Shown: in pieces, positions 39,172 through 39,591 of the stretch
Position numbering within the stretch: the stretch's first letter is position 1
How the letters are laid out: every line of letters starts with the position of its first letter
Source: an uncultured archaeon
GTDB taxonomy: Archaea > Aenigmatarchaeota > Aenigmatarchaeia > PWEA01 > JAGHBM01
NCBI GenBank assembly: GCA_964640225.1
Contig: CAZXFI010000002.1
Span: 1 to 57,198, forward strand
DNA: 57,198 nucleotides
Reading direction: 5' to 3'
Position numbers and translations under genes: made by a program
The notes under the pieces: generated by a model
Told to the model about the DNA's origin: nothing
The model's input: the letters and a program-made list of their open reading frames with translations, nothing else
Database searches by the model: none

Positions 39172-39332
39172 GAAGCAAATACAGCCCCGTAGCCGTAGGA
39201 AACTTTTAGAAAAAGTTTCATCAAAACTCTGACGGGCTATAGAAGCAAATACAGCCCCGTAGCCGTAGGAAACTTTTAGAAAAAGTTTCATCAAAACTCT
39301 GACGGGCTATAGAAGCAAATACAGCCCCGTAG
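39172..39332 (+). repeat. 70-bp tandem repeat (2.3 copies) containing the first 10 nt of the tRNA and a hairpin
   Basis: Identical units at 39172-39241 and 39242-39311, partial at 39312-39332. Each unit holds AGCCCCGTAG and GAAACTTTT-AGA-AAAAGTTTC. Confidence 0.92.
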
Positions 39333-39591
39333 TCTAGTGGCCAAAAAGTAGGTTGACTTACACGAGGTGTAAGTTTGTGCAACCAATTGGCTATGGATTT
39401 CGGGCTTTGGACACGCTTCCAAAGCGTTGAAGGCGCAAGCCTTATGAAATAAGAAGAAACCCGAAGACGACGGTTCGAATAAGCTTTTTAGAAAAAATAC
39501 CGAAAAAAGTTTTCGGATTTTTACGAAAATCCGAGATTTTCGGTAAAAAGCTTGAGCAAAAACCTGCGCGAGAATCCGTCCGGGGCTACCA
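39323..39591 (+). tRNA. tRNA-Gln(UUG) with three introns (21/22, 37/38, 59/60) and encoded CCA
   Basis: Exons 39323-39344, 39395-39410, 39459-39479 and 39575-39591 join to a 76-nt cloverleaf: AGCCCCG/CGGGGCT acceptor with A1-U72, TCGGG/CCCGA stem, loop CT-TTG-GA, GACGG/CCGTC T-stem with TTCGAAT loop. Confidence 0.9.

Follow-up and report, generated by a model that had tools for sequence, protein, structure and literature searches.

Three putative introns in a tRNA-Gln(UUG) gene of an uncultured Aenigmatarchaeota archaeon, and a predicted wobble-methylation guide within one of them

Introduction

Can a gene that consists mostly of introns, and that standard tRNA finders pass over, still supply a cell with a working tRNA, and what would cut and join its pieces? 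The question is raised by positions 39323-39591 (+) of a 57,198-nt stretch of DNA, contig CAZXFI010000002.1 of assembly GCA_964640225.1, from an uncultured archaeon of the Aenigmatarchaeota. This whole stretch is called the window here, and positions given without a contig label refer to it. An earlier note on this DNA, made from the letters alone, had proposed that a tRNA-Gln(UUG) gene interrupted by three introns lies at this place, and had added that multi-intron tRNAs occur in Thermoproteales and ARMAN archaea and are often missed by standard scans. This background agrees with the literature (PMC4090602, PMC3239211), and standard scans missed the present gene as well.

We refer to the genome bearing the gene as G000 (116 contigs, 1.17 Mb, 91% complete; contigs labelled C1, C3 and so on) and to related genomes by other G numbers. 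Judging from sequence, we put the probability that positions 39323-39591 are a working tRNA-Gln(UUG) gene with three introns that would be cut out and the exons joined by proteins at about 0.85. The multi-intron tRNA described here adds the Aenigmatarchaeota lineage to a phenomenon already known in archaea.

Results

Gene structure and splice motifs

The locus can be read as four exons of 22, 16, 21 and 17 nt separated by three introns of 50, 48 and 95 nt, the introns making up 193 of the 269 nt. When the exons were joined in silico, a 76-nt sequence was obtained, AGCCCCGTAGTCTAGTGGCCAAGGATTTCGGGCTTTGGACCCGAAGACGACGGTTCGAATCCGTCCGGGGCTACCA, in which the terminal CCA is encoded, and ARAGORN called it tRNA-Gln(ttg) with a complete cloverleaf. 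The joined sequence has a 7-bp acceptor stem, U8, the GG of the D-loop, U33, the T-loop TTCGAAT and the CCA end. Exon joining and the ARAGORN call thus showed that the coordinates, intron sizes and intron share given in the earlier note were exact, and supported its assignment of the gene to Gln(UUG). On the unspliced locus, no tRNA was reported by ARAGORN, with introns allowed or not, or by the Rfam models at either the gathering or the E<=10 threshold, as is expected with such a gene structure.

Exon 1 (39323-39344, +, 22 nt; AGCCCCGTAGTCTAGTGGCCAA) carries the 5' strand of the acceptor stem, U8, the 5' strand of the D-stem and the D-loop. Exon 2 (39395-39410, +, 16 nt; GGATTTCGGGCTTTGG) contributes the 3' strand of the D-stem, nucleotide 26, the 5' strand of the anticodon stem and C32-G37 with the UUG anticodon. 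A38, the 3' strand of the anticodon stem, a 4-nt variable loop, the 5' strand of the T-stem and T-loop positions 54-59 lie in exon 3 (39459-39479, +, 21 nt), and exon 4 (39575-39591, +, 17 nt) supplies U60, the 3' strands of the T-stem and the acceptor stem, A73 and the encoded CCA. The G+C content of the exons is 56-71%, compared with 34-44% for the introns.

Archaeal introns are recognized by a motif called bulge-helix-bulge (BHB), in which two 3-nt bulges flank a 4-bp helix and the cut falls after the second base of each bulge. Motifs are classed as strict (hBHBh') or relaxed (HBh' or hBH). In all three introns of tRNA-Gln(UUG), the central helix is paired in 4/4 positions, in a register in which each cut would follow the second base of its bulge. 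Intron 1 (39345-39394, +, 50 nt), at the border of the D-loop and the D-stem, has an HBh' motif formed by GGCC (39339-39342) and GGCT (39389-39392), with 1 bp on the outer side and 2 bp on the inner side. Intron 2 (39411-39458, +, 48 nt), at the canonical 37/38 site, has an hBH motif formed by CTTT and GAAG (39453-39456), with 7 bp outside and 0 bp inside, and contains the guide module discussed below. Intron 3 (39480-39574, +, 95 nt), at 59/60, has an hBH motif formed by TTCG (39474-39477) and CGAG (39569-39572), with 5 bp outside, where the T-stem closes it, and 0 bp inside. Thus, none of the three motifs (0/3) is strict and all are relaxed. The helices named in the earlier note were all in the correct BHB register, and the further details that it gave were also found: an internal hairpin in intron 1 (8 bp, 39356-39374), a GCAA-capped hairpin in intron 2 (39431-39442) and, for intron 3, a relaxed inner side (h'=0).

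A fold of the whole transcript forced into the cloverleaf together with all three central helices had an energy of -92.8 kcal/mol, against -96.3 kcal/mol for the unconstrained minimum free energy (MFE) structure. The cost of the forced fold is small (3.5 kcal/mol), suggesting that the three splice sites can coexist. A spliced alignment made without any knowledge of the BHB motif recovered the same three gaps. From sequence alone the junction of intron 2 is ambiguous by 1 nt and that of intron 3 by 3 nt (AAT at either end), and the BHB register selects 37/38 for the former and 59/60 for the latter. The junction of intron 1 is unique: GGCCAA|GGAT reproduces the D-arm of uninterrupted relatives. 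Its site is between the last base of the D-loop and the first base of the 3' strand of the D-stem (22/23 in linear numbering, about 21/22 in Sprinzl numbering). The introns had been placed in the D, anticodon and T loops; this holds for the anticodon loop (37/38) and the T loop (59/60), whereas intron 1 lies at the border of the D-loop and the D-stem and not in the loop proper.

Orthologs and intron history

Orthologs of tRNA-Gln(UUG) from 40 Aenigmatarchaeota relatives were compared. The exons were kept and collinear, with 0, 1, 2 or 3 introns; the ortholog of G037 has 0. Introns 2 and 3 are old, since 37/38 and 59/60 are constant as intron sites within the family. The D-arm intron lies at 15/16 in G001 and G006, at 21/22 in G000 and at 24/25 in G002, and G003 has none. 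Intron 1 is young, and a homolog of it occurs in the Gln(CUG) lineage.

The tRNA-Gln(CUG) gene of G000 (G000:C3:60403-60572) shares the D-arm and T-loop intron sites, with homologous introns, and its anticodon loop is uninterrupted. Intron 1 and the D-arm intron of Gln(CUG) share 85% mean column identity, with compensatory changes in the inner hairpin, and the homolog occupies the same site of Gln(CUG) in both G000 and G004. The 5' exons of the two Gln genes are identical. These sequence comparisons point to an exchange of intron 1 between the two genes. In G002, a complete chromosome of 832 kb, tRNA-Gln(UUG) has the three-intron layout and the only other copy of its 5' exon is in Gln(CUG).

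In a mat contig from another organism, the 5' exon continues directly into GGATGGCGGGCTTTGGACCC. This uninterrupted relative confirms the junctions between exons 1 and 2 and between exons 2 and 3. It was found in run X1 on a contig of 51,783 nt with a depth of 13, belonging to a less abundant organism of the same mat. The first 22 nt of its tRNA-Gln(UUG) are identical to ours, and its D-arm and anticodon-loop sites are without an intron.

The tRNA census of the genome

We wrote a strict scanner that is anchored on the acceptor stem, the CCA end and the T-arm, allows BHB-compatible jumps and applies cloverleaf checks; for the census, candidates were first filtered on the T-arm and then put through a vectorised search for BHB motifs. 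At positions 39323-39591 the scanner returned one solution only, and in the whole of G000 it returned 19 tRNAs; the reversed genome gave 4 solutions, all poor. The single solution and this control exclude chance as the origin of the gene structure. Most of the tRNAs recovered from G000 contain 2-3 introns, suggesting that tRNA-Gln(UUG) is one instance of a genome-wide state; among the strict calls, Pro (90 nt), His (87 nt) and Ile-GAU (84 nt) are in doubt. Infernal reported 7 tRNAs above threshold in G000, 1-13 across the eight family genomes and 4-38 elsewhere in the class, and standard tools taken together show 6-13 in G000.

The 5' exon of tRNA-Gln(UUG) occurs at two loci in G000, and the other one is tRNA-Gln(CUG). 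No second Gln(UUG) gene was found in the 91%-complete assembly, which answers the check that had been proposed for one, and no intact, uninterrupted tRNA-Gln was found in G000 by ARAGORN or Infernal. In 509 long open reading frames (ORFs) of G000, CAA makes up 22% of the Gln codons (1466, against 5190 CAG). Because CAA codons are used, a UUG tRNA is needed. The locus (39303-39800) was found to be identical in Logan contigs of four microbial-mat DNA metagenome runs.

Two other calls came out of the census. The tRNA-Leu(UAA) gene (G000:C4:10941-11208, -) parses with four BHB-compatible introns. They measure 28, 49, 42 and 64 nt; the D-loop holds two of them, the 37/38 site a third, which carries a guide module, and the T-loop another. 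Its spliced form was accepted by ARAGORN, and it has one intron more than the three per gene given for Thermoproteales in the review cited above. A tRNA-like call made by both ARAGORN and Infernal at G000:C8:19509-19598 (+) has no encoded CCA; its sequence style (AGTGTCTCTAGCTTAATTGGTCAAAGCG...) is unlike that of other G000 tRNAs, and short CTTAACCCTT repeats lie upstream. A foreign origin, for example from a virus, or a spurious call may explain it.

Splicing enzymes

Multi-intron genes had been expected to need an endonuclease of broad specificity, of the (alpha-beta)2 or epsilon2 type, and a check of the EndA type had been proposed. This expectation failed: G000 encodes one EndA of 182 aa (G000:C3:84440-84985), with an N-terminal PF02778 domain and a catalytic PF01974 domain, and no paralog. 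When phmmer was run over all six-frame ORFs of G000, neither a second EndA nor a beta subunit was found, the next match having an E value of 0.8. The same query detects the Nanoarchaeum beta subunit in PDB (E 3e-9), so that a beta subunit like it would not have been missed. One unit per genome was found in 8/8 family genomes. Aligned with the M. jannaschii enzyme (1A79), the EndA of G000 shows an insertion of six residues (GVKLKKGPKSAKEH) between its catalytic Tyr and catalytic His, and the Nanoarchaeum alpha subunit (3IEY_A) has an insert of equal length (GVIPKKGKRSEREH). From the alignment, the insert is probably the DPANN 'L3' loop described in PMC5829648, and the protein can be classed as an alpha4-like single-unit enzyme, a type that Kaneta 2018 had anticipated for DPANN archaea. 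In the class as a whole, we observed three EndA architectures, namely the single unit, a fused two-unit protein of about 365-413 aa (in a sister family; G013, G016-G021) and two adjacent genes (G024, G033 and G039).

Given the relaxed substrates in G000, a specificity for strict BHB motifs only is probably not what this EndA has. We consider it reasonably likely, at odds somewhat above even, that relaxed motifs at non-canonical sites are cut by a single alpha4-like EndA and not by an (alpha-beta)2 or epsilon2 enzyme. The single-unit EndA is that of the family in which the fewest tRNAs are detectable. A ligase, RtcB, is also encoded (G000:C1:143204-144511, E 2.8e-170).

A candidate methylation guide in intron 2

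Intron 2 is composed, in order, of ACACGCTT, CCAAAGC, G, TTGA, AGGC-GCAA-GCCT, TAT, GAAA, TAA, GAAG and AA. What the earlier note had described as two hairpins forms a module of an antisense element and a kink-turn (K-turn). The antisense CCAAAGC (39419-39425, +) is complementary to G31-G37 (39404-39410) and has a constant spacing to a D'-like box. The D'/C'-like kink-turn (39427-39449, +) consists of UUGA (39427-39430), a C-stem formed by the hairpin AGGC-GCAA-GCCU (39431-39442), the 3-nt bulge UAU (39443-39445) and GAAA (39446-39449). UUGA and GAAA would form tandem G.A pairs and two A-U pairs, which fits the consensus YUGA / RUGA-N-R. In box C/D guides, the target nucleotide pairs with the fifth base upstream of the D or D' box (the N+5 rule). 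In intron 2, the fifth base upstream of UUGA, counted with the one-base spacer, pairs with the wobble base U34.

Of 371 genomes of the phylum, 67 (43 of 170 genera) contain the module pattern CTTTGG-N3-12-CCAAAG-NN-YTGA, each a single time, against 5 hits in the reversed control. When the spacer was freed between 0 and 7 nt, the N+5 spacing gave 68 hits and the seven other spacings about 41 together; the control, with all eight spacings counted, gave about 80. Enrichment is thus confined to the N+5-compatible spacing. In 30 distinct orthologous introns, the first position of the D' box and the fourth base after the bulge covary, being UA in 19, CG in 9, UG in 1 and CA in 1; the general pattern is YUGA / N-R-U-GA-N-R, with an invariant U before GA. 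Further compensations were T32 with CCAAAA (G030), C33 with CAAGGC (G035) and AAGA with GATT (G034). Overall, 96% of the cells are paired, a value reached in 0 of 500 shuffles, and sliding the partner columns by 1-3 positions lowered it to 30-66%. The 4-bp splicing helix with CTTT is present in 30/30. Some of the orthologous introns are only 33 nt long, and in the shortest the K-turn strand doubles as the splicing strand.

The same module was found in the 37/38 introns of four other G000 tRNAs: Glu(UUC) (C4 ~12740, -), Leu(UAA) (C4 ~11083, -), Arg(UCU) (C3 ~73084, +) and a tRNA(CAU) (C7 ~154, -). In each, the antisense is retuned to the anticodon loop of its own host and nucleotide 34 is at N+5, and the form is antisense, 1 nt, UUGA, a hairpin, NRU and GA-NN. 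Loose scans for further modules, one of which gave 210 matches, yielded mostly noise, and only the five modules in recognisable tRNA genes were accepted. The tRNA-Lys(UUU) gene has a 15-nt intron in which the module is absent. Fibrillarin (PF01269, E 1.8e-86), Nop5 (PF01798, E 8.1e-53) and L7Ae (PF01248, E 2.7e-29) are encoded in G000. Um34/s2Um34 occurs in tRNA-Gln(UUG) of Sulfolobus, where it is attributed to a box C/D small RNA (sRNA) acting in trans (PMC7668247). In the literature searched, we found no report that links tRNA introns with Aenigmatarchaeota, and none that connects the introns of tRNA-Gln with guides.

By analogy with these systems, we predict, with slightly more confidence than an even bet would warrant, that intron 2 guides 2'-O-methylation of U34. 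We rejected the idea that intron 2 is a full C/D sRNA, since terminal C and D boxes are absent. With its single K-turn and 7-nt antisense, the module is not classed as a member of the box C/D sRNA family; it would be a natural half-mer guide.

A possible pathway would be as follows. The gene would be transcribed as a 269-nt precursor, and the 7-nt antisense of intron 2 would pair with G31-G37 ahead of splicing. The D'/C' kink-turn could then recruit L7Ae, Nop5 and fibrillarin, and U34 would be 2'-O-methylated. Because C32-U35 take part in both the antisense and the splicing helix, the two are mutually exclusive, suggesting an order of methylation, then refolding, then splicing. The methylated precursor would refold into a splicing-competent form, EndA would cut at the relaxed BHB sites 21/22, 37/38 and 59/60, and RtcB would ligate the four exons into the 76-nt tRNA.

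In its general form, the reading is that in Aenigmatarchaeota single-kink-turn C'/D' guides in 37/38 introns methylate the wobble base of their own tRNA and then refold for splicing, and that a one-subunit alpha4-type EndA cuts the relaxed, off-site introns. We give this joint reading about an even chance. Its proposed targets, held at the same even odds as a part of it, are tRNAs with a pyrimidine at position 34 from split codon boxes, here Gln-UUG, Glu-UUC, Leu-UAA, Arg-UCU and CAU.

Several points weigh against it. The pair statistics hold partly by construction, because the Gln search pattern fixed both target and antisense, and the four paralogous modules came from a scan that required pairing. 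The module scan of G000 gave 15 matches against 9 in the reversed genome, so that a tRNA context is required for a module to be accepted. The module is absent in some orthologs (genus g11, G025 and G031). The antisense spans 7 nt (G31-G37), compared with the usual 10-12, and pairs intramolecularly across a loop of 3-12 nt. Only one kink-turn is present; neither a C box 5' of the antisense nor a conserved D box 3' of the C'-like box was found. As for the enzyme, alpha4 EndA cuts strict BHB motifs only in published enzymology (PMC5829648), and a beta subunit could have escaped notice, either by lying in the 9% of the genome that is missing or through divergence too great for detection. Finally, the locus was found in DNA metagenome runs only, and no RNA run contains it.

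Some of these points lend themselves to another explanation, namely that the antisense and the kink-turn are real but are no methylation guide: L7Ae or another K-turn binder, with the antisense as a mask, would serve as a folding chaperone, a timer of splicing order or an anticodon shield. The single K-turn, the missing terminal C/D motif and the short antisense agree with this, and the antisense helix competes with the splicing helix and wins in the free MFE structure, as a regulatory switch might. A mask, however, has no need of the strictly fixed one-base spacer that fits the N+5 rule, and the register falls on nucleotide 34 in five different tRNAs. Moreover, the targets match known sites of 2'-O-methylation at position 34 (Nm34) by C/D guides in other archaea (PMC7668247, PMC7994747), and fibrillarin and Nop5 are present. 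We regard a non-guide role as unlikely, though deserving real weight, and prefer the guide reading.

Intron 3, the leader repeat and neighbouring genes

Intron 3 contains a hairpin cassette, here called cassette A, made of TAAGCTTTTT (39480-39489), AAAAAGCTT (39545-39553) and GAGCAAAAAC; the intron starts with TAAGCTTTTT and finishes with AAAAAGCTTGAGCAAAAAC...CGAGAA. Cassette A with a 3-nt loop occurs in the T-loop intron of Gln(CUG), the anticodon-loop intron of tRNA-Glu(CUC) and others. In intron 3, the place of the 3-nt loop is taken by a nested hairpin insert of 55 nt (39490-39544). No significant second copy of this insert or of intron 2 was found in G000. Intron 3 can thus be recognised as a copy of a hairpin cassette common to many tRNA introns of G000, with a nested insertion. 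The spread of the cassette resembles the intron 'transposition' of Thermoproteales (PMC4090602), a likeness drawn by analogy. A/T palindromes of the form NNNCTTTT-loop-AAAAGNNN gave 77 strand hits in G000, nearly all in or beside tRNA genes, and fall into at least three families by position in the tRNA: A (T-loop or anticodon-loop), B (T-loop) and C (D-loop). Palindrome-like hairpins were also seen in tRNA leaders and 3' of CCA.

The leader of the gene is tandemly repeated (39172-39332, +; period 70, 2.3 copies, TRF score 322, 100% matches). The repeat unit consists of 49 nt of leader, with the hairpin AAACTTTT-AGA-AAAAGTTT, and a 21-nt part, present three times, in which the last 11 nt of the leader, GAAGCAAATAC, are followed by the tRNA's first 10 nt, AGCCCCGTAG. 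Of the repeat copies, the third alone runs on into the gene. The 39-nt unitig that closes the repeat was found in four metagenome runs at 0.35-1x of the flank depth; its presence there shows that the repeat is real, and an assembly artefact was rejected. The copy number probably varies in the population. We also rejected the idea that the tandem leader copies are a fourth intron at 10/11, since no BHB can be formed (CCGT against CCGT is unpairable). The original 5' leader contains a degenerate copy of the cassette (39139-39171, +; GTAAGCTTTTAGAAAAAAAACTTAACCAAAAAC), which matched cassette-A introns with 88% identity over 33 nt in blastn-short, and AAACTTAACCAAAAA is also found 5' of tRNA-Arg(GCG). 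This leader copy is possibly promoter-related.

Downstream lies trm56 (39605-40123, +; PF01994, E 2.6e-45), which encodes aTrm56, the tRNA Cm56 2'-O-methyltransferase. Upstream and divergent is an archaeal threonyl-tRNA synthetase gene (37208-39070, -; PF08915, PF00587 and PF03129), whose nearest matches are 'archaeon bin779' (CP070662.1) and a Candidatus Aenigmatarchaeota metagenome-assembled genome. The gap between tRNA-Gln(UUG) and trm56 is 13 nt (39592-39604), as had been stated. By tblastn, 10 relatives of several genera were found to have a tRNA-Gln upstream of trm56 and in the same orientation, with gaps of 10-1428 nt; these include L005 (G005), L012, L016, L026-L028, L008, L009 and L090. 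In G037, an intron-less tRNA-Gln lies 10 nt upstream of trm56. The adjacency is an old gene order, probably going with co-transcription. In G005, it is Gln(CUG) and not Gln(UUG) that adjoins trm56, an arrangement that suggests recombination between the two Gln genes. The earlier note had pointed out that C56, the target of trm56, lies in the helix of intron 3. C56 is indeed in the TTCG arm of that helix; the coincidence has no visible functional weight, and a functional tie between the adjacency and intron 3 was rejected, since the linkage is present without the intron in G037.

The likeness of leader and intron cassette raises the question whether the A/T palindrome of intron 3 (TTTTTAGAAAAAA, which resembles the leader box) acts as an internal promoter from which trm56, or a 3' piece of the tRNA, is transcribed separately, which would make the gene partly split-tRNA-like. 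The start of trm56 13 nt after the tRNA leaves no room for a promoter of its own, and the order of tRNA-Gln and trm56 is conserved. However, co-transcription and tRNA processing suffice to account for this, as the linkage persists without a T-loop intron in G037 with its 10-nt gap; the same cassette is found in anticodon-loop and T-loop introns of tRNAs without a downstream gene; and, with the T-stem closing it, the 3' bulge is a proper one for splicing in cis. An internal promoter is therefore very improbable.

Most improbable of all is that the locus is a pseudogene in decay into which small palindromic mobile elements have moved, with the working Gln(UUG) gene in the unassembled 9% or imported from a host: the dispersed hairpin family in intron 3 and the leader, the nested insertion, the duplicated leader and the 91% completeness would allow it, but every conserved tRNA base is intact in the exons, each insertion is in BHB register, orthologs in the genus and family are interrupted at 37/38 and 59/60 with their exons kept, the complete G002 chromosome has the same layout and no extra 5' exon beyond Gln(CUG), and most G000 tRNAs are similarly interrupted.

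Discussion

The tRNA-Gln(UUG) gene at positions 39323-39591 is best read as a working gene, and genes of its kind account for the few tRNAs that standard tools see in G000. Unless such genes are found, inferences on annotation, completeness and codon reassignment in DPANN archaea will be wrong. The most broken tRNA genes and the simplest EndA occur together in one family, so that substrate breadth can be tested directly, with one small protein and a 269-nt substrate that has three relaxed motifs. If the joint reading is true, two textbook rules would fail in vivo, namely that archaeal C/D ribonucleoproteins need two K-turns and that alpha4 EndA cuts strict BHB motifs only, and a selective reason for the persistence of canonical introns would be at hand. 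Intron 2 would then be a natural, minimal device for RNA-guided methylation that ties intron persistence to wobble modification in a reduced genome, and its one-K-turn scaffold, being compact, would be of interest for programmable RNA methylation.

The closest parallels to the gene structure are in Thermoproteales. The tRNA-Pro(UGG) of Pyrobaculum islandicum has introns at 25/26, 37/38 and 56/57 (Sugahara 2007/2008, as cited in PMC4090602), and intron sequences common to different tRNAs, suggesting transposition, have been described in this order (Fujishima 2010, as reported in PMC4090602). As there, our gene has three introns, one canonical, one in the D arm and one in the T arm, relaxed BHB motifs and shared intron sequences, and is missed by standard finders. 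Unlike there, where the hosts are Crenarchaeota with an (alpha-beta)2 enzyme carrying the crenarchaeal loop, the host is a DPANN archaeon of a microbial mat with an alpha4-like EndA, the non-canonical sites are 21/22 and 59/60, and the genome has at least one four-intron gene. ARMAN-2 (Micrarchaeum) likewise belongs to the DPANN archaea and carries numerous non-canonical and multiple introns (Fujishima 2011, PMC3239211; PMC5829648); its EndA is a three-unit epsilon2 enzyme, whereas that of G000 is a one-unit protein of 182 aa. In DPANN archaea, loop-bearing alpha4 EndAs go with more tRNA disruption, and incomplete tRNA sets were noted (Kaneta 2018, PMC5829648).

For the module of intron 2, the nearest precedent is the pre-tRNA-Trp intron of Euryarchaeota, a box C/D guide (Clouet d'Orval 2001 and Singh 2004, as presented in PMC2584109 and PMC7994747); a guide role was also suggested for the stable, C/D-like intron of Nanoarchaeum tRNA-Met (Randau 2012, PMC3491384). 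Like the tRNA-Trp intron, intron 2 is located at 37/38 and has an antisense to its own anticodon loop beside a D'-type box, with N+5 at nucleotide 34; in both, the guide and splicing helices exclude each other and modification precedes, or here would precede, splicing. The differences lie in the host tRNA, in G000 Gln(UUG) together with Glu, Leu-UAA, Arg-UCU and CAU, and in the reduction to one K-turn, one 7-nt guide and one target. In Sulfolobus acidocaldarius (PMC7668247), the tRNA, the nucleotide and the modification machinery are the same, namely tRNA-Gln(UUG), U34 and the C/D proteins; there the predicted guide is a separate sRNA with two motifs, whereas here it would lie within the intron of the very tRNA that it modifies.

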